Made by a program: the position numbers and the translations under genes
Shown: one piece after another, positions 4,476 through 49,612 of the stretch
Position numbering within the stretch: position 1 is the stretch's first letter
Layout of the letters: each line of letters begins with the position of its first letter
Assembly: GCA_038450185.1 (NCBI GenBank)
Contig: GCA_038450185.1_4765.1
Direction: 5' to 3' (one strand)
DNA length: 64,000 nucleotides
Source of the DNA: a phage
Notes under the pieces: generated by a model
Seen by the model: only the letters and a program-made list of their open reading frames with translations
Databases searched by the model: none
What the model was told of the DNA's origin: nothing

Positions 4476-4773
4476 TATCTTTTAAGAACTCATCCCATGA
4501 ATGGCGGATATTGTTCTTAATTCTCCAGATGAGCGCAGGGATTGAACGCTCTCCCATCTGGAAGTATGGATCATATGATCCGTATGCCCAATATGCTACT
4601 ACAATTCCACAATCAGAGCAATAGTATTCTATTTCACTTGCTGGCGACCAAAGTCCATCAATATGATCGGTGATCTTGCTTTCGATGTTATGGCTATGGC
4701 AATCAGGGCAACGGATGCAATGACCTTGTTTGTCGTAATTTGACGTTAGAGAATACTTAAACAATCTCATCAT
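4441..4773 (-). CDS. Cys/His-rich zinc-binding protein (110 aa)
   Basis: CxxC..CxH and CxxC clusters; translationally coupled to both neighbours. Confidence 0.45.
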   Translation of the reverse strand: MMRLFKYSLTSNYDKQGHCIRCPDCHSHNIESKITDHIDGLWSPASEIEYYCSDCGIVVAYWAYGSYDPYFQMGERSIPALIWRIKNNIRHSWDEFLKDIDLRDDPFRRL

Positions 4774-5486
4774 AGATCCTTATTGGCTTCAAATACTGCC
4801 TTTGCGAATCCTCGCGGGGTAAGCGACCTGATAGTCTTTGTTCTGGTTCCTTTCCCGCCTAGCTTAGAATGCTGTTTACTGTACCCTTTATTAATCTGCA
4901 AAGGTTTCTTTTCTGGCATTATAAAGCCTTGTCCGGTCCATAAGCAAGTCTTTTTTGGGTACATATCACGGGCGGCAATATACTCAGGAAACGTAGGATG
5001 CTTATCATCTTCCGGCAAATAACCGCCATATTCCCACGGATGGAACATATAATCAGGCTTACGCCACATGCTAGAGATAACGCTTACAGGATTCTCTATC
5101 ATGTAGGGAACTCCTAGCCATTCACCCAAATAAGCGGTTATTTTAGCTGCCCGTACATCATGAACTTGAATCAATGGTCCTTGTCCTCGTTTCTTTCGTT
5201 CAAAGTGCGCAGCGCCACTAACAGCTAAATTGGTGCACGGTGGGAATGCAAAGATAATATCCGGTTTCCCCCATTCAAGGTCCATTGCTCTTTCCAGCCA
5301 ATTCAAATCAATCCATGTGTTTACATAAGTAATGTTTGGATGTTCAAATCGGGTATTATACTTTTTGTATGTGCCGTGATCGCCATCGTCAGCATTAAAG
5401 CAGATCACCTTATGACCTTCTTTAGCCCATTCTAGCCCCATTATCCCCGATCCGTCAAAGTTGCAGAATATTAATTTTTGTTTCAT
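4770..5486 (-). CDS. compact C5-cytosine-methyltransferase-like protein (238 aa)
   Basis: Motif I-like FCNFDGSGIMG, motif IV-like IFAFPPCTNLAVSGA (Pro-Cys), motif VI-like ENPVSV, possible motif IX RSLTPRGFAKA; too short to hold a normal target recognition domain. Confidence 0.5.
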   Translation of the reverse strand: MKQKLIFCNFDGSGIMGLEWAKEGHKVICFNADDGDHGTYKKYNTRFEHPNITYVNTWIDLNWLERAMDLEWGKPDIIFAFPPCTNLAVSGAAHFERKKRGQGPLIQVHDVRAAKITAYLGEWLGVPYMIENPVSVISSMWRKPDYMFHPWEYGGYLPEDDKHPTFPEYIAARDMYPKKTCLWTGQGFIMPEKKPLQINKGYSKQHSKLGGKGTRTKTIRSLTPRGFAKAVFEANKDL

Positions 5487-10003: not shown

Positions 10004-10033
10004 CATTATAGGGGATCACCGATCCCCTGTCAA
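10004..10033 (-). promoter_or_regulatory. sigma70-type early promoter with GGGGATC..GATCCCC spacer
   Basis: Near-identical to promoter at 3885..3913. Confidence 0.55.
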
Positions 10034-10041
10034 CAACTTTT

Positions 10042-10344
10042 TTATTCTTCGTCTTTATCTTTATATGCGTATTTCATAAATTTGTCTGCTACTTCATCGG
10101 CATGTTCCGATTCTACGTCGGATTCGAGAACAATAGCAAGATCGGTTTCGTCGTTTCCGTCATACCAATGATTATGAGTATCGTTTTCTTCGATATAGAA
10201 TGAGTCATTTGGAGTTGGACGACAATATACATCTAAATTCTCATCGATGTAAAAGATCCAATCTTCGTAAAGAATAACCGTATTAGCCAGATTTTTATTG
10301 CCTTCAACGAAAGGTTCAGCTACAAATAGCTTAGTTTGTTCCAT
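10042..10344 (-). CDS. small protein, HxHW paralog family member (100 aa)
   Basis: IFYIDENL...THNHWY...LAIVLESDV motif; trimmed to internal ATG. Confidence 0.5.
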   Translation of the reverse strand: MEQTKLFVAEPFVEGNKNLANTVILYEDWIFYIDENLDVYCRPTPNDSFYIEENDTHNHWYDGNDETDLAIVLESDVESEHADEVADKFMKYAYKDKDEE

Positions 10345-39246: not shown

Positions 39247-42162
39247 ATGGCAGATTTAAGCAGAATCCAATTTAAACGTACTAGCACTAAAGGCCGTCGA
39301 CCTGATGCTGGTACGATGAATCCGGGGGAATTGGCAATCAACCTTGCGGATCAATATCTTCTTACTAAAAATGATTCCGGTGCTATTATCAATTTAAGTT
39401 GTCCTCCGGTTTATGACAGCGATGTTACAATGGCGGGTAAGGTTAAAGGAAATAATTATATTTTAAGTAAAACCGCTAATTATTTTGAAGACCAAACCGC
39501 GCGAGATCTTAATTATTTTGGTGCGTTTCGACCGAATAATGCTGATGGTTGGTCTAACTTGATTCTGAACATTCCTCATCCCAGCGGTAAAGCACACGGT
39601 CGCGGGTTTGAATTTGAATATGGTTCTAGTTCCTCTCAGGTTAAAACCTATGGCTTTGATAAGGATGGTAACAAGAGATTCAGCTTTCGCATGTATCACG
39701 AAGGTGATAAACCTACTCCCTCAGAATTGAACGTCTATAGCAAACAAGAAATTGACCGTATGTTTGTTAAGAACGTTAAAATGGTTGTTCCTTCTGGTGG
39801 TGCAACCCGTGGTTATTTTAAAATTGCATCCGCAATGATCCCGCAGAGTGGTCGGATGGCGTTTCTGCGAATCTATGGTGGTAATGGATATAATGTAAAC
39901 TCATATGATCAAGTTGATTTTCTTGAAATTGTTATTCGTAGTGGTAATAATAACCCTAAAGGCGTTAGTATTGCTGCATATCGTCGAAATTCTTTGAACG
40001 TCCATGAAGTATTTGCAATTAATACTTCCGGTGATAACTATGACATTTATGTTAACTATGGTCGCTTCACCGATAACGTTATTGTAGAGTTTGGAAAAAC
40101 TGTTGATGTTGCATTGACTGTTCACGATGTTCCTGAATTTTCGGCGACTAAACCAGAAACCGGAACTAAATTTGATGCTCGTGTTATTACTATGTTCAAC
40201 ACCGAAAACAAAGCCGGAACGTTGATGTTTGATAATAACTCACAAACAACCTATGATATTGTTAGCCTTAATAACGTACCAGACAACAATAAAAAATATA
40301 TGCGTAAATTCCGCAGTCGTGCGGCGGAAACAATATGGCATGAAACTGTTCAAGGTGATGTTTATCGCCTAGCGACAGGGGCTACCGATCAGAAAGAAGT
40401 GTTAAAGATTGTAGGTAGTGATGGTTTATTTGTCAATAGACTTCATCTGCAAGGCAATAACGCGATTCGTATGTGGCGTCCTACTGGTTGTAGTAACTAT
40501 TTTGAATATATGGATCAGCGAGACGGGGCTAATAAACGTCAAGGCTGGTTTGGTTTTGGTTCTACAGAAACCAACGATTTTCAATGGTATAGTGACGAAG
40601 GTAAAAACTTTGTTAAGCTAGAAGCAAGTGGTCAAGTATCTTTAAGCGCAGGTGCAACCAAAATTGTATACACTAATGGTCAATATGTAGCTGCCAATTC
40701 TGATGCATACCGTATGATCTTTGGTAATTATGGTGCATTCTGGCGTAATGACGGCACTAAAGTTTATCTTATGTCTACTGCCGAAAATGATAGATTTGGT
40801 GGCTGGAATGCCTATCGTCCATTCATTTATGATTTAACTTCCGGTAACGTTCAATTAGGCGGTGATGGTAACGAAGATGCATTAACGTTAGAAAGTGCTT
40901 CTCGTGCCGCTCGCTTTAGTAATGACGTTTACATTAAGAAAGGGCTTTTGACTTTCGACGCTGGGCGATTAAATTCCCGCGATTACTTCCGGTTTAACCA
41001 TTGGGGCGATAGCAATAACGGTCGCGATAACATTTTACAGCTTGACGATAGCATAGGTCCACACTTCACCACTGAACGTACTTTAGCAACTGGTTCAATT
41101 AAAACTAAATTCTTCGGTAATTTGGAATCTGCTGGTCAAATTAAATGGGGTAAAGGGACCGCCACATCTACGTTTACTCTACGTGTATGGGGTAGCGATA
41201 GCCGTAAACAAATATTTGAATGCGGCGATGAAAGCGGGTGGCATTGGTATACCCAACGCGCGGGCGGTCCTGATACTTCTGCAATTGATTTTGCCATCAA
41301 TGGTACTGTTAGGCCTCAAGCAATTCACACTGGCGGTAATATCACTATCAACGGTGCTGATATTGAGTTTAAACGCACTGGCAATAAGCACATCTGGTTT
41401 AGAGATCCAAACGGCTTAGAGTTAGGTCTGTTGTACTGCGATGATGCTGGCGTTATGCGTATGCGCGGTAAGAAACAAACCGAAGTCTGGAAATTCGGCG
41501 GTAAGATGATTCAACTTGAAACTGGTACTGTAACCGGTGGCGGTAGTGGTCTGATTCGTGGTAGCGTTGCTGGTGGTAGTTGGACTAGCTGGCGCGATCG
41601 TGCTTCCGGTTTACAGGTCGACTGTCAACAATCAACCGTTTCCGCTCATAACGTATGGAAAGCAACCCATCAAGGTAAATATCATATAGCAGCAATGGGT
41701 GTACACGTTCCTAGTGGTACTATCGGAAATGCTATGGTGCGTATGCACGTACACGATGCAACTTTTGACTTTGGTGCGAGCGGTGACTTCCAGGCAAGCC
41801 GTAATGGTAATTTTAACGATGTTTATATTCGTTCTGATGCTCGCCTTAAAATCAATAAGGAAGAGTATAAGGAGAATGCCACCGATAAAGTTAATCGCTT
41901 GACGGTATACACCTATGACAAGGTTAAATCTTTAACCGACCGTACTGTCATTGCTCATGAAGTTGGTATTATTGCTCAGGATCTTGAAAAAGAATTGCCG
42001 GAAGCCGTAACAACTTCTAAGATCGGCGATCCAGATAATCCAGAAGAGATCTTAACAATTTCTAACTCCGCTGTCAACGCTCTTTTAATTAAGGCGTTTC
42101 AGGAAATGAGCGAAGAACTTAAAGCCGTTAAAGCTGAACTAGCGGAACTTAAAAAGAATTAA
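39247..42162 (+). CDS. 37: long tail fibre distal subunit with C-terminal intramolecular chaperone domain
   Basis: N-terminus MADLSRIQFKRTSTKGRRPDAG..GELAINL matches T4 gp37; C-terminal roughly 108 aa begin at an S-D-A-R-L-K motif. Confidence 0.85.
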   Translation: MADLSRIQFKRTSTKGRRPDAGTMNPGELAINLADQYLLTKNDSGAIINLSCPPVYDSDVTMAGKVKGNNYILSKTANYFEDQTARDLNYFGAFRPNNADGWSNLILNIPHPSGKAHGRGFEFEYGSSSSQVKTYGFDKDGNKRFSFRMYHEGDKPTPSELNVYSKQEIDRMFVKNVKMVVPSGGATRGYFKIASAMIPQSGRMAFLRIYGGNGYNVNSYDQVDFLEIVIRSGNNNPKGVSIAAYRRNSLNVHEVFAINTSGDNYDIYVNYGRFTDNVIVEFGKTVDVALTVHDVPEFSATKPETGTKFDARVITMFNTENKAGTLMFDNNSQTTYDIVSLNNVPDNNKKYMRKFRSRAAETIWHETVQGDVYRLATGATDQKEVLKIVGSDGLFVNRLHLQGNNAIRMWRPTGCSNYFEYMDQRDGANKRQGWFGFGSTETNDFQWYSDEGKNFVKLEASGQVSLSAGATKIVYTNGQYVAANSDAYRMIFGNYGAFWRNDGTKVYLMSTAENDRFGGWNAYRPFIYDLTSGNVQLGGDGNEDALTLESASRAARFSNDVYIKKGLLTFDAGRLNSRDYFRFNHWGDSNNGRDNILQLDDSIGPHFTTERTLATGSIKTKFFGNLESAGQIKWGKGTATSTFTLRVWGSDSRKQIFECGDESGWHWYTQRAGGPDTSAIDFAINGTVRPQAIHTGGNITINGADIEFKRTGNKHIWFRDPNGLELGLLYCDDAGVMRMRGKKQTEVWKFGGKMIQLETGTVTGGGSGLIRGSVAGGSWTSWRDRASGLQVDCQQSTVSAHNVWKATHQGKYHIAAMGVHVPSGTIGNAMVRMHVHDATFDFGASGDFQASRNGNFNDVYIRSDARLKINKEEYKENATDKVNRLTVYTYDKVKSLTDRTVIAHEVGIIAQDLEKELPEAVTTSKIGDPDNPEEILTISNSAVNALLIKAFQEMSEELKAVKAELAELKKN

Positions 42163-42477: not shown

Positions 42478-43134
42478 ATGCAAGTTTCTGAAAAAGGGAA
42501 AGACTTTGCTATCTCAAATGTCCTGCGCGCTATTTTCACAACTAAAAGCACGGAGTTGCTCGTACTTCGTGTTTTTGCTGCCGTCGTGTTGTCCGTATTG
42601 GCATTTGTCGTTTATAGTAAAAACGAGTTATTTGCGCTTTATAAAGAGACTCGTTATGAGACTTATGCTCACATTCTCCAGGTAGAGAAAGACCGCAATT
42701 TTGATAATGCAGCACAGGAGCAGTTACAGATAGTTCATGTGTCGGCTGATGCCGATTTTTCTGCTGTTTTTAGCTTTCGTCCGAAAAACCTAAACTATTT
42801 TGTTGATTTGGTGGCATATGAAGGAAAGCTACCGCATACGATCGATGAAAAGAATTTAGGCGGATTCCCTATCAATAAAACGAGTGAAGAATATCGTAGG
42901 CATCTTTTAGGTAAATCATATTTTACCGATAAAGATTTCCAGTATATTCCATCGAGGGAGAAAAAATTAGAGAATATCGATATAGGGTTTATGTATTCTT
43001 GTCCTATATTCAATCTCGATAATGTCTATTCTGGTAGTATCGCCATTGCATGGAAGAATAAACCGGATATTGACATTGAGAATTTGGATACTCTTTGCAA
43101 TCAATCTGCCAGAATCCTCGGAAGGATTAGATAA
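42478..43134 (+). CDS. t: holin
   Basis: 218 aa, same length as T4 holin T; LEQLQIVHVSADADFSAVFSFRPKNLNYFVDLVAYEGKLP and C-terminal ARILGR match. Confidence 0.85.
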   Translation: MQVSEKGKDFAISNVLRAIFTTKSTELLVLRVFAAVVLSVLAFVVYSKNELFALYKETRYETYAHILQVEKDRNFDNAAQEQLQIVHVSADADFSAVFSFRPKNLNYFVDLVAYEGKLPHTIDEKNLGGFPINKTSEEYRRHLLGKSYFTDKDFQYIPSREKKLENIDIGFMYSCPIFNLDNVYSGSIAIAWKNKPDIDIENLDTLCNQSARILGRIR

Positions 43135-44685: not shown

Positions 44686-44973
44686 TTATTTTCGGTTGTG
44701 GTCACGATATGTTTTAAAATATCCCTCGTACCACGGTAAAACATCTGGATTTTTACCACTATACAGACCTTTAACCATCATGTCAATAAGACCGTCCGGT
44801 GTTTGATAATTACCAGCTTTTATAAGCTCTCTGATTAAAATTTCCCTGTATATGTCTTTCGGATCTTCGTAATCAACTTGTATCGTGGTTGTTGTCTCGC
44901 TTAATTTGGTTTCTGGAGTATCTTGCATCGCCTTCCACCAATCTTTTGTGATCTTCATGTTATTGAATTGCAT
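44686..44973 (-). CDS. hypothetical protein (95 aa)
   Basis: ATG-initiated ORF. Confidence 0.4.
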   Translation of the reverse strand: MQFNNMKITKDWWKAMQDTPETKLSETTTTIQVDYEDPKDIYREILIRELIKAGNYQTPDGLIDMMVKGLYSGKNPDVLPWYEGYFKTYRDHNRK

Positions 44974-44984
44974 AATTTAACCTA

Positions 44985-45743
44985 TTACTTGCAAACGTAT
45001 TGATCTACATCAATTGCGCCACCGAATGTAGGATGACGTTTTTCGAATCGAATAGTTCCGTCGTTTGGTTCGAAAACGGAGTATTCATATAGATCTTTCT
45101 TGCCAACATTCTTATAAAACCCGCCTTTAGTCATAACGGTTTCTTGTACGTTTGCTTTGTGTACGTTGTATTCATCAATGTATACAAAATCAACCATCTT
45201 CCCATTTTTAATTGTTACTTTAAGATCTCCTGGTTGGTTTCCATATTTGGCATACAGTGGCGCTTCTTTAATTTTTGTGGAAATTCCATCTTTCATACTC
45301 CACTCATAACGAACGGTGCATTGATAGGTAAAAGTTTCGACCTTCGGTTCTTCTACCACTTTTTCTTCCTGTTTCGGTTGTTCTTCTTCAACCTTCACAG
45401 AAGTCTCTGAATCGCTTTCTGACGCGGTTTCTTCTTTAGGTAATACATTCATCAAGTTTTGGATTTGAGCGTTGTATACAGCCTCCAGTGGCTGAATCTG
45501 CCCGATATTGATCATTGTATCACGAACAGTTTTATTCCAGTTGCGTTGCTCTTGTTTCAGAGACGGATCAATCTTAACAGCTTTAACATATACTTCATGA
45601 AGTTTCGAATCCAGTGCGGAGATTGACTCATTAACACAAATAAACTTCTCTGATTTGGTAGTAGCCTTAGTGCAATCAAAGGACGCAGCATTAGCACCTA
45701 AAGCAGTAGCAGAAAGAACGATAGCAGCGATAATGTTTTTCAT
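44985..45743 (-). CDS. secreted protein with LprI-like (DUF1311) N-terminal domain
   Basis: Signal peptide MKNIIAAIVLSATALGANA; then FDCTKATTKSEKFICVNESISALDSKLHEVY as in lysozyme-inhibitor LprI-type domains. Confidence 0.45.
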   Translation of the reverse strand: MKNIIAAIVLSATALGANAASFDCTKATTKSEKFICVNESISALDSKLHEVYVKAVKIDPSLKQEQRNWNKTVRDTMINIGQIQPLEAVYNAQIQNLMNVLPKEETASESDSETSVKVEEEQPKQEEKVVEEPKVETFTYQCTVRYEWSMKDGISTKIKEAPLYAKYGNQPGDLKVTIKNGKMVDFVYIDEYNVHKANVQETVMTKGGFYKNVGKKDLYEYSVFEPNDGTIRFEKRHPTFGGAIDVDQYVCK

Positions 45744-45813
45744 AATATATTCCTCAATGTTTTGTCTTGATGGGAGTATCTTACTACTCCCTTAATCCGG
45801 TGTCAACTACTTT

Positions 45814-46041: not shown

Positions 46042-46323
46042 TTATTTTCGCCATTCACCGGAAACAATGAAGTTTGTAAAGTGATTGTGGTCCGTGATAA
46101 TGTCATTAAGTACCATATGCGGATATGCTTTAGTGTAATCACGTTTACGATCAGTCATCCAACCAACGAAAGTCGGTGCAAAGTACGGCACACCGTCAGA
46201 TGATGCCATATTAAACCCTTTATCAGCCATAAATGCAGCCGCCCTAAGATTTTTAATTGAAGTAGTGCGACTAATTTCAAAAACTTTATCGGTAAAATTC
46301 ATTTTAAACCCCCACTCGTGCAT
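46042..46323 (-). CDS. hypothetical protein (93 aa)
   Basis: ATG-initiated ORF. Confidence 0.4.
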   Translation of the reverse strand: MHEWGFKMNFTDKVFEISRTTSIKNLRAAAFMADKGFNMASSDGVPYFAPTFVGWMTDRKRDYTKAYPHMVLNDIITDHNHFTNFIVSGEWRK

Positions 46324-46884: not shown

Positions 46885-47085
46885 CTAGTTTTTGTTATTT
46901 TCGTGAAAATTTTTCGTCGCCTCATGTGCTTTTCGCTGGGCTTCTTGTTGTGCTTGCTGGCGTGCTGCCTCTTGCGATGCCATAACAGACGCATTTGCAG
47001 CAGTTACAGCCGCGACCATCGCTGCGGTATTAGCATTTACCGTACATGCACTAGCCAGCAAAGCAATTGCAATCATTTTCTTCAT
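46885..47085 (-). CDS. small secreted or lipoprotein-like protein (66 aa)
   Basis: Signal peptide MKKMIAIALLASACTVNA. Confidence 0.4.
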   Translation of the reverse strand: MKKMIAIALLASACTVNANTAAMVAAVTAANASVMASQEAARQQAQQEAQRKAHEATKNFHENNKN

Positions 47086-48034: not shown

Positions 48035-48236
48035 ACTTTCCCTCCAAAAATTCTTTCATCAAATAGTCTATCGTTACTCTGTGTTCTGGTGTGTTTGTTA
48101 TCTCTGCTAACTTATTCAGAGATTCAATAGTGATCCGGTTGGCTTCTTCCATAGTCTCAACGACCATCGGTACAATCTTTTTATTGTTGTACACGAAAGC
48201 CACATAACCGCCTTCTGGATATTCTTTCATAATCAA
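48027..48236 (-). CDS. hypothetical small protein (69 aa)
   Basis: ORF overlapping both neighbours. Confidence 0.4.
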   Translation of the reverse strand: MIMKEYPEGGYVAFVYNNKKIVPMVVETMEEANRITIESLNKLAEITNTPEHRVTIDYLMKEFLEGKYD

Positions 48237-49612
48237 CCCTTCTTAAGTTCTTTAAGATCTTTCTTATATTCCTTCATTGCGGTCGTCTTTGTCCAATACT
48301 CATATTCACTATGATGTTTATCGGCATCTTTGACCAGTCGATCATACTCTTCTTGAGTAACGCTATACAATGGCATAGAAACTAGCTTATCGGCGTATGG
48401 ACGCAGTTTTTCATGTCCATTGATGGATTGCATTACCTCGGCCTTTTTCTTTCCCTGTAGCTCGATTTCGCCCTTAATTACAAGGTCGATAAATTCAGCT
48501 TTAGCCATTGCATAATTGTATGCTTCCAGTGTTTCCGCTTGCATCAATTCAATGCGTTTATCTACATAGCCTAATCGGATTTCGACGAATCGACGGATCA
48601 GATCGCTCGCTTTTTCGAATACTTCTACTAAACCACGTTCGTTAACTACTACGATATTCTGGGCTACTAACTGCGTTAGTTTAAAATCCTTCATGATTTG
48701 CTCATGTCGAGCGGATTCATCTTCGCTTTTGAAATAATCACGTTTCAGTGTTACTTCAAATCTGAATCCGTCCTTAGAGCAACGGTCATTATACGATACA
48801 ATCAGATCTTTTTCTTCCAGTGCATCCAGTACCGCTACATATTCTTCACGGTCGAACTTATAAGGAACTTCTGATATTGTCAGTTTAGTCTTGCCGTTTA
48901 GTTCATATGTACCCTCAAGAATCACACCATCGCGATCATCTCGCGGGATAACTTTACCCGTGAATTTCGGGAATTGAACACTAGGTTCTTTATCCAGTTT
49001 TCCGGCAAGTGCTAGCTCTGTGCATTCAATAAGGCTTTCCAGTGAATGCGGTAAAATGTCAGTTTTATACCCTGTAGCAATACCACTAATACCGTTAGCC
49101 AATACCATTGGAACAACTGGCAAGTAGAACGCTGGCGGGATGTGTTCCAGATCTTCGTGCTTAGGTGCGCAATTCATATCTTTATAGATTTTAAAGAAGT
49201 TTTCATGAACACGAGCAAAGATATAACGTGCCGCACCTGCTTTCTGGACTAAACGCGATCCGAAGTTACCTTGACCGTCAAGCAGTGGAGTATTATTGCT
49301 CCATGTATTCGCCATGAGTGATCCGGCTTCTACGGCATTAGTTTCCCCGTGGTGATAACCCAACTCAGCAACACCAGATCCAATATCTGCCATCTTACGG
49401 AATTTCTTACGGTCGCCTTTACTCTTTTGAAGTGCGCACTCCATAACAAAGCGTTGCACTGGTTTAAGCCCATCCACTAATTGAGGAATCCCGCGTTCCT
49501 CGGCAGAATAGATCGCATATTCCTTAGCTTCATTATGTACAATGCTTTCAAGGCTGCGGTAAGTAAATGTGTTTACAATTTGACTAATTTTATCCATCTT
49601 CACCTCATACAC
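48233..49612 (-). CDS. 52: DNA topoisomerase II medium subunit (GyrA-like)
   Basis: 459 aa; GyrA-type PQLVDGLKPVQRFVM motif; T4 gp52 about 442 aa. Confidence 0.8.
   Translation of the reverse strand: MYEVKMDKISQIVNTFTYRSLESIVHNEAKEYAIYSAEERGIPQLVDGLKPVQRFVMECALQKSKGDRKKFRKMADIGSGVAELGYHHGETNAVEAGSLMANTWSNNTPLLDGQGNFGSRLVQKAGAARYIFARVHENFFKIYKDMNCAPKHEDLEHIPPAFYLPVVPMVLANGISGIATGYKTDILPHSLESLIECTELALAGKLDKEPSVQFPKFTGKVIPRDDRDGVILEGTYELNGKTKLTISEVPYKFDREEYVAVLDALEEKDLIVSYNDRCSKDGFRFEVTLKRDYFKSEDESARHEQIMKDFKLTQLVAQNIVVVNERGLVEVFEKASDLIRRFVEIRLGYVDKRIELMQAETLEAYNYAMAKAEFIDLVIKGEIELQGKKKAEVMQSINGHEKLRPYADKLVSMPLYSVTQEEYDRLVKDADKHHSEYEYWTKTTAMKEYKKDLKELKKG

Follow-up and report, generated by a model that had tools for sequence, protein, structure and literature searches.

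A secreted DUF1311-like protein of RB49-like phages with an exchangeable C-terminal cassette and a predicted MliC/PliC-type barrel

The window, i.e. the whole 64,000-nucleotide stretch of DNA that was analysed, comes from an RB49-like T-even phage of the genus Krischvirus, and the 3-kb stretch around the gene under study is 97% identical to many such genomes. The gene (44985..45743, minus strand) is a complete coding sequence for 252 amino acids plus the stop codon, precisely as delimited in an earlier sequence-only reading, whose quoted peptide, FDCTKATTKSEKFICVNESISALDSKLHEVY, corresponds to residues 22-52. It is the ortholog of RB49 ORF260c (AAQ15486.1) and belongs to PHROG 14799. The ORF260c orthologs are labelled ‘hypothetical protein’ in every phage record, and relatives of the protein are already named ‘LprI-like’ in UniProt and NCBI/RefSeq. 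A weak resemblance of RB49 ORF260c to DUF1311 (E=0.2) was tabulated in 2006 (PMC1524935), and the literature that was searched contains no paper on this gene beyond that table.

The gene lies in a block of small early-strand genes that is flanked by the holin gene t (42478..43134, plus strand), about 1.9 kb away, on one side and by topoisomerase gene 52 (48233..49612, minus strand) on the other. A consensus scan identified a sigma-70-type (early) promoter-like site, TTGACA-17 nt-TAAGAT (45778..45806, minus strand; 10 of 12 matches), in the 70-nt gap after the upstream gene, with the end of the -10 hexamer 34 nt before the ATG; the annotation of phage GEC-3S marks a promoter at the equivalent position. 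Judging from this site, the gene is likely to be expressed early. In the sequence, a GAGG ribosome-binding site (45752..45755, minus strand) precedes the ATG by 8 nt. A perfect 6-bp inverted repeat (GGAGTA-GTAAGA-TACTCC; 45773..45790, minus strand) overlaps the -10 hexamer of the putative promoter.

The downstream gene, the ortholog of RB49 ORF259c (95 aa; 44686..44973, minus strand), starts 11 nt after the stop codon of the 252-aa gene, is probably co-transcribed with it and has no Pfam, PADLOC or other family match. It is represented by two alleles that are about 50% identical, one in the window phage, RB49 and UPWr_E1 and the other in JSE, GEC-3S and Phi1; the divergence is mosaic within the gene, which is partly caught in the same mosaic region as the C-terminal domain of the 252-aa protein. 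In the UPWr_E1 annotation, this gene starts 15 codons later. On the upstream side, a 93-aa ORF (46042..46323, minus strand), about 347-584 nt from the ATG, is an insertion/deletion polymorphism: the stretch is common to Phi1 (92-100% identity) and absent from RB49, JSE, GEC-3S and UPWr_E1. A 66-aa ORF (46885..47085, minus strand) starts with MKKMIAIALLASAC, including a possible lipobox (ASA followed by C), and continues with a Gln/Ala-rich helix; it looks like a small secreted or lipoprotein-type product and is another candidate envelope protein in the same early block. No effector or toxin gene adjoins the 252-aa gene, its phage neighbours being small early ORFs without matches.

Residues 1-19 of the protein (MKNIIAAIVLSATALGANA, followed by AS; 45687..45743, minus strand) are a textbook signal peptide of Sec type I. 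Manual analysis of the n-, h- and c-regions and of the AXA motif distinguishes the n-region MK, about 15 hydrophobic residues (NIIAAIVLSATALGA) and A-N-A at positions -3 to -1, with predicted cleavage after A19, and detects no lipobox; residues 1-17 have a pLDDT below 50 in the AlphaFold model. The mature protein, which has four cysteines (24, 36, 142 and 251), should be soluble in the periplasm.

Residues 20-100 (45444..45686, minus strand) form a constant helical domain, recognised by a match to the LprI/DUF1311 family (PF07007) above the Pfam gathering cutoff and by the AlphaFold helices. The match (E=5e-5, 24.1 bits vs a gathering cutoff of 22) aligns residues 24-76 with positions 1-71 of the 106-position profile and is marginal and C-terminally incomplete. 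It is not a chance match, because the same partial match recurs independently in four diverged homologs, namely those of JSE (24.4 bits), lambdoid phage ev099 (25.2 bits), Klebsiella phage F48 (23.1 bits) and E. coli P0019 (26.4 bits). Profile positions 72-106 are aligned in no homolog, i.e. the C-terminal third of the domain is absent from the match. The modelled helices span residues 30-37, 39-58, 62-80 and 83-98 (pLDDT 75-86), and the domain contains a QRxWxxxxRD motif and the pair Cys24/Cys36, its only two cysteines, both invariant in all homologs. The helical domain is followed by an acidic, Glu/Lys/Pro-rich, disordered linker (residues 101-134; 45342..45443, minus strand), delimited by composition, pLDDT (34-45) and DNA identity profiles. 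Residues 101-138 include 32% Glu and have a net charge of -8, residues 105-131 are disordered in the AlphaFold model, and TRF finds no tandem repeats in the linker. The cleavable signal peptide, the DUF1311 likeness and the acidic linker had all been pointed out in the sequence-only reading and are borne out by this analysis, the DUF1311 likeness by a narrow margin over the cutoff.

The polymorphic C-terminal cassette (residues 135-252; 44988..45341, minus strand) belongs, in the window phage, to allele class 1 (RB49 type). The same reading had noticed a C-terminal domain and left its fold undescribed. In the AlphaFold model, residues 135-251 are all-beta with a pLDDT of about 90, and the domain folded alone reaches a pLDDT of 91.1 and a pTM of 0.83. 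The model is an eight-stranded antiparallel beta-barrel of about 100 residues, the architecture that characterises the MliC/PliC type. By rmsd, the structural matches are PliC, PhiA and ACP at 2.6-2.8 A, with PhiA the best of the MliC/PliC type, compared with 3.8-4.4 A for calycin/Cap15-like structures; the surface-lipoprotein barrels TbpB, NHBA, fHbp and HpuA are further good matches. The fold shared by PliC, MliC, ACP and PhiA is a flattened eight-stranded barrel with a conserved beta1-beta8 disulfide (PMC5507604, PMC8334348). The sole two cysteines of the phage domain, invariant in all alleles, are Cys142 in the first strand (C-domain position 10) and Cys251 at the end of the last strand (position 119); a Cys142-Cys251 disulfide is predicted, as are the other disulfides of the periplasmic protein. 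A Foldseek search of the PDB with the two-domain model was uninformative, and a structure search of BFVD returned only uncharacterised small phage barrels.

At the sequence level, membership of the C-domain in the MliC family was rejected. The motifs SxSGAxY (loop 4) and YxxxTKG (strand 6), which are found only in true MliC/PliC members (PMC5507604, PMC8334348), occur in none of the 12 allele sequences; the ‘TKGG’ of the window allele, considered as an echo of YxxxTKG, is a lone, non-conserved TKG in a loop and hence a coincidence. No Pfam family, including MliC (PF09864), matches any C-domain allele at E<=10, and a profile search of PDB sequences with the C-domain gave no match, PliC, MliC, ACP and PhiA included. 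A HMMER profile scan of 1.84 billion representatives recovered only the protein's own family, one fragment and one spurious repeat protein. Because the cysteines are placed alike and the motifs are absent, the C-domain resembles ACP and PhiA, which likewise combine the fold and the disulfide position with a lack of family membership.

The two parts of the protein differ sharply in conservation. Among the homologs aligned from a 5.8-billion-protein collection, residues 1 to about 130 are nearly invariant (the median identity of the N-module across all homologs is 97%), whereas the C-domain diverges or is replaced. Pairwise analysis with a 60% identity threshold divides the C-domains into at least 8 allele classes, with 17-56% identity between classes, that fall into two superclasses: superclass I includes the alleles of the window phage and RB49, GEC-3S and Phi1, UPWr_E1, E. 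coli 266917 and P0011-14, and superclass II those of JSE, E. coli P0019 and P0020. Only the two cysteines, one glycine and the strand pattern are kept between alleles. A single fold for all alleles could not be demonstrated for superclass II, which hhalign aligns to superclass I only over the first 26 residues (the first strand) with a probability of 4.7%. Among the isolated Krischviruses, 45 records carry the window type at >=95.8% identity (43 of them at >=99%), 12 have alleles of about 36% identity, and none are in between.

The transition between the conserved and the variable parts is abrupt. Over the first 365 nt or so, counted from the ATG, the DNA is 90-100% identical to that of RB49, JSE, GEC-3S, UPWr_E1 and Phi1; identity is then 30-55% to the stop codon and is back to about 100% within 0-300 nt downstream of the stop. 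The junction to the other alleles lies in the linker, where identity collapses at about nt 355-400 of the gene (roughly window positions 45343-45388), and genomes that are otherwise 95-100% identical carry at least 8 deeply divergent C-domain classes. Chromosomal copies are present in 26 of the 5426 complete E. coli genomes; these match the phage gene at 95-97% identity over the first 371-408 nt and are divergent in the remainder, such that phage and prophage are similar from the start codon as far as the linker. Two prophage alleles have identical upstream and downstream sequences and differ in the C-domain alone. Because identity breaks in the linker both in the Krischviruses and in the prophages, the C-domain is an exchangeable cassette that is joined in the linker in two independent genomic contexts. 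Hypermutation, in particular by a DGR, was rejected as the source of this diversity: the alleles are discrete, the class 1 cassette is essentially invariant, and no reverse transcriptase is annotated in RB49.

A search of RB49 and the window for a second or donor copy of the cassette found none, with the exception of a distant paralog in RB49, ORF192c (117423..117899, minus strand). This is a stand-alone secreted barrel without the DUF1311 module: its signal peptide (MKKIIAIAVVAALSMTNVAHA followed by A) precedes a sequence of the form TYQC…DG…VWCK, and it is matched by the C-domain profile with an hhalign probability of 95% (E 2.7e-8) and an hmmsearch E-value of 4.8e-7. ORF192c is found in only 7 phage records, as two alleles (100% and about 57% identity), and not in the window.

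Co-variation of the C-domain alleles with three other genes was considered and rejected. All Krischviruses share a gp5 lysozyme region of 97.5-100% identity, regardless of the C-domain class, so the variable module cannot be tuned to self-type gp5. The receptor-binding tip of gp37 shows 52-88% identity that is spread within both main allele classes, which implies that the C-domain is not matched to the phage's own receptor. Pairing with the 95-aa downstream gene is not one-to-one. In the window, gp37 occupies 39247..42162, and its distal part (41044..41946, plus strand) is the tip that is 52-88% identical among Krischviruses; this tip has matches of about 50% identity, with about 88% query cover, in two records named after a Hafnia phage, Zyzzx, and a Listeria phage, LPML1 (87 kb); Listeria is an odd host for such a match.

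Beyond the Krischviruses, the succession of a signal peptide, AASFDC, DUF1311-like helices, a charged linker and a different C-terminal module recurs in Klebsiella Marfaviruses, Aeromonas T4-like phages and a lambdoid phage. The Marfavirus homologs lie between the genes for primase and dCTPase, and the homolog of the lambdoid phage between ea22 and xis/int; the E. coli copies are located at a prophage end, beside a truncated hicB, and have prophage genes and hicAB as neighbours, with no cognate secreted toxin gene among them. The temperate-phage copies sit in accessory (moron) positions. In E. coli 266917_2, the prophage is apparently integrated in hicB (annotated as truncated; locus positions 10016-10324), leaving hicA with a damaged antitoxin gene. 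A comparison of the 252-aa protein with the PADLOC-DB defence HMMs produced only insignificant matches (E>=0.004).

To our knowledge, Imm and Spackle of T4 are the only factors through which superinfection exclusion is understood in T-even phages. Spackle acts by inhibiting the gp5 tail lysozyme of a superinfecting phage (PMC7677548). RB49 has the gp5 tail lysozyme, rI and t and no annotated sp or imm, and neither tblastn nor phmmer nor a three-sequence HMM (T4 to Marfavirus) detected a Spackle-like ORF in RB49 or the window, the Marfavirus Spackle being found as a control; otherwise, Spackle is present in 984 phage records. The 252-aa protein itself matches phrog_14799 and phrog_4675, and not phrog_1586 of Spackle. 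Two 93-aa ‘hypothetical proteins’ encoded just downstream of helicase gene 41, gp103 of Klebsiella phage F48 (locus positions 640-921) and gp255 of phage R3_1 (601-882), are divergent Spackle proteins (phrog_1586, E 4e-25 and 2e-26, respectively). The Marfaviruses, then, encode both an unannotated Spackle and the LprI-like protein, which rules out a complementary distribution with Spackle as a general rule. An assignment of the F48 homolog to the T4 sp slot proved wrong, given that, by the T4 order 56-dam-61-61.1-61.2-sp-61.4-dmd-41, the F48 gene is in the dam slot. The putative endolysin of RB49, ORF102c (locus positions 4719-5108), is annotated as a small peptidase type, not as a T4 e-type lysozyme, and has a weak match to D-Ala-D-Ala carboxypeptidase (PMC1524935). 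With an endolysin of this type, a muramidase inhibitor presumably need not block the phage's own lysis, which matters for any model that places such an inhibitor in the periplasm.

The sequence-only reading had proposed that the protein could inhibit the tail lysozyme of incoming phages. Its anatomy stands, i.e. the protein is secreted and consists of a DUF1311-like N-domain, an acidic linker and a C-domain; the proposal as a whole is partly supported, its functional inference resting largely on a weakly founded Pfam name. By the account cited in PMC7933661, LprI of M. tuberculosis is a reported lysozyme inhibitor in which the separate MliC domain is sufficient for inhibition, and ScwA, a periplasmic protein with the LprI domain only, gave no lysozyme protection (PMC7933661). 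For these two reasons, the Pfam name ‘lysozyme inhibitor LprI’ is not evidence of inhibition by the N-domain. Precedents of a different kind come from immunity: Etsi4, a secreted DUF1311 protein, rescues the toxicity of Etse4, providing immunity against a cell-wall T6SS effector that acts in the periplasm (PMC12981562), and DUF1311 immunity proteins are predicted in S. Dublin, Pantoea and WHIX loci. Taken with the MliC/PliC-type barrel, these precedents suggest that both halves of the phage protein point to the binding of muralytic enzymes in the periplasm. In the models, the DUF1311 domain and the MliC-type barrel together appear to reproduce the domain combination of LprI. The inhibitor interpretation is plausible, although it was first reached for a partly wrong reason.

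The best, if tentative, explanation is that the protein acts in the periplasm to inhibit muralytic enzymes brought in from outside, with specificity lying in its polymorphic module, which makes it a candidate for superinfection exclusion. Under this scheme, the soluble periplasmic protein would be supplied early in infection through the gene's own sigma-70 promoter, and in lysogens by the prophage copies. It would bind and neutralise peptidoglycan-cleaving enzymes of foreign origin, whether the tail lysozymes of a superinfecting phage, T6SS or bacteriocin toxins of the muramidase type, or both, and would so provide superinfection exclusion or protect against lysis from without. As the constant part, the invariant DUF1311-like domain would serve for binding or as a scaffold, and the flexible acidic linker would tether to it a barrel of the MliC/PliC/ACP/PhiA type, closed by a disulfide, that acts as the exchangeable determinant of specificity. 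A consistent picture would have the N-domain directed against a constant target and the cassette against variable targets from outside, for example the enzymes of rival phages or toxins. The deep, discrete polymorphism of the C-domain, with clean exchange in lytic phages and prophages alike, fits a conflict interface, and the presence in RB49 of the gp5 tail lysozyme with no detectable Spackle or annotated imm keeps the idea of an inhibitor alive. The most informative features are the predicted MliC/PliC-like, disulfide-bracketed barrel and the discrete cassette polymorphism that is common to virulent and temperate phages. Against an inhibitor stand the absence of the MliC/PliC motifs, the lack of a Pfam MliC or PDB sequence match and the negative results for PhiA, whose proposed target was not inhibited in vitro (PMC8334348), and for ScwA; nor could the barrel be demonstrated for the superclass II alleles. 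A simple substitute for Spackle is contradicted by the Marfaviruses, which have both proteins, and by the C-domain, which does not co-vary with the near-invariant gp5.

A different form of exclusion, which we consider unlikely, would do without enzyme inhibition. The barrel would mask the envelope from the periplasm by binding a variable host component (a porin or receptor turn, a Tol-Pal/Ton component or a lipoprotein) or a non-enzymatic part of the virion (the tail tip, the tape measure or ejected proteins) and would thereby block entry, with DUF1311 serving as a stable scaffold only. The predicted secretion and early expression, the moron positions in temperate phages and the discrete deep polymorphism, which is typical of a protein-protein conflict interface, agree with masking as well, and the structural matches to protein- or ligand-binding surface-lipoprotein barrels (TbpB, NHBA, fHbp and HpuA) and the existence of ORF192c, a secreted barrel that stands alone, speak for it too. 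However, the alleles do not track the phage's own gp37 tip, so that the phage's own receptor is not what would be masked, known receptor blockers, T5 Llp for one, differ from the protein, which carries neither a lipobox nor a membrane anchor, and the invariant DUF1311 domain is left unexplained.

Quite improbable is a role in cell-wall turnover or lysis timing, in which a ScwA-like regulator would act on endogenous lytic transglycosylases or on the phage's own lysis machinery and so stabilise the sacculus or tune lysis. ScwA does alter the levels of MltD, and its overproduction leads to lysis (PMC7933661); for PhiA, the restraint of an endogenous autolysin has been proposed (PMC8334348), and holin t is close by in the window; but the nearness to t is not conserved in Marfavirus, the lambdoid phage or the prophage, a housekeeping-type target leaves the at least 8 divergent alleles in 95-100% identical genomes unexplained, and the RB49 endolysin is of the peptidase type and not a muramidase. 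Lysis-timing modulation, the second function offered in the sequence-only reading, gained no specific support. The sequestration of a periplasmic metabolite, lipid or signal by a calycin/Cap15-like, small-molecule- or lipid-binding C-domain is very improbable, considering that binding pockets are usually conserved and here only two cysteines, one glycine and the strand pattern survive between alleles, that cyclic-nucleotide signalling is cytoplasmic, and that the calycin-like matches are structurally more distant than those to PliC, PhiA and ACP.

The reading of the protein as a periplasmic inhibitor of muralytic enzymes can be taken further, into a more doubtful proposition: the gene could be a polymorphic ‘periplasmic immunity’ locus, in which a linker that permits recombination joins a constant secreted DUF1311 module to interchangeable barrels, each neutralising different envelope-breaching proteins of rival phages, or T6SS or bacteriocin toxins, and the cassettes are traded between virulent T-even and temperate phages. 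If true, the locus would be to phages what polymorphic toxin-immunity systems are elsewhere, and its mode of superinfection exclusion would be new and specific to the allele. For the exclusion of rivals by RB49-type phages, the 252-aa gene is a concrete and easily cloned candidate, and the natural allele series, with at least 8 C-domain classes on a near-identical N-module, is a ready-made specificity-swap experiment. Should the alleles differ in the phages or toxins that they block, it would follow that the cassette polymorphism of a periplasmic inhibitor is driven by competition between phages, with one gene pool common to the lytic and the temperate ones. Such a result would also give a first functional handle on the widespread DUF1311 domain, independent of the questionable database name, and would be of practical relevance to the design of phage cocktails from Krischviruses.

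Compared with known systems, the phage protein shares different features with each of several envelope proteins. Like T4 Spackle (gp61.3, phrog_1586), it would be an early, Sec-secreted, disulfide-containing periplasmic phage protein, these properties being predicted for the phage protein; there is no sequence relationship between the two, Spackle is a 75-residue single helical bundle (PMC7677548), and, unlike the phage protein, it is highly conserved across 178 homologs and neither modular nor polymorphic. The T6SS-associated immunity proteins, EHEC Etsi4, S. Dublin SED_RS06230 and the products of the Pantoea orphan immunity genes, have in common with it a signal peptide and DUF1311 and act, or are predicted to act, in the periplasm against cell-wall-degrading effectors; however, these are single-domain proteins of about 146 aa encoded beside the effector, whereas no effector gene adjoins the phage gene, whose product has a polymorphic barrel in addition. 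Salmonella ScwA is, like the predicted mature phage protein, a soluble periplasmic LprI-domain protein, and its disulfides are DsbA-dependent (PMC7933661), but it is 275 aa long and all-helical, with the LprI domain at the C-terminus. LprI, by the account cited in PMC7933661, is likewise secreted to the envelope and pairs a helical domain of the DUF1311 type with an eight-stranded MliC/PliC-type barrel (PF07007 + PF09864). The differences are that LprI is a lipoprotein and the phage protein is predicted to be soluble in the periplasm, that the phage barrel shows no similarity in sequence to MliC, neither of whose motifs it contains, and that the phage protein has a partial DUF1311 match (1-71 of 106), a long acidic linker and a polymorphic barrel. 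Neisseria ACP and Brucella PhiA, which are classed as periplasmic inhibitors, are similar to the phage C-domain in the MliC/PliC fold, the position of the cysteines in the first and last strands and the absence of the family motifs. Both are single-domain bacterial proteins conserved within genera, whereas the barrel described here follows a DUF1311 domain in a fusion protein, is carried by phages and occurs in at least 8 divergent alleles.
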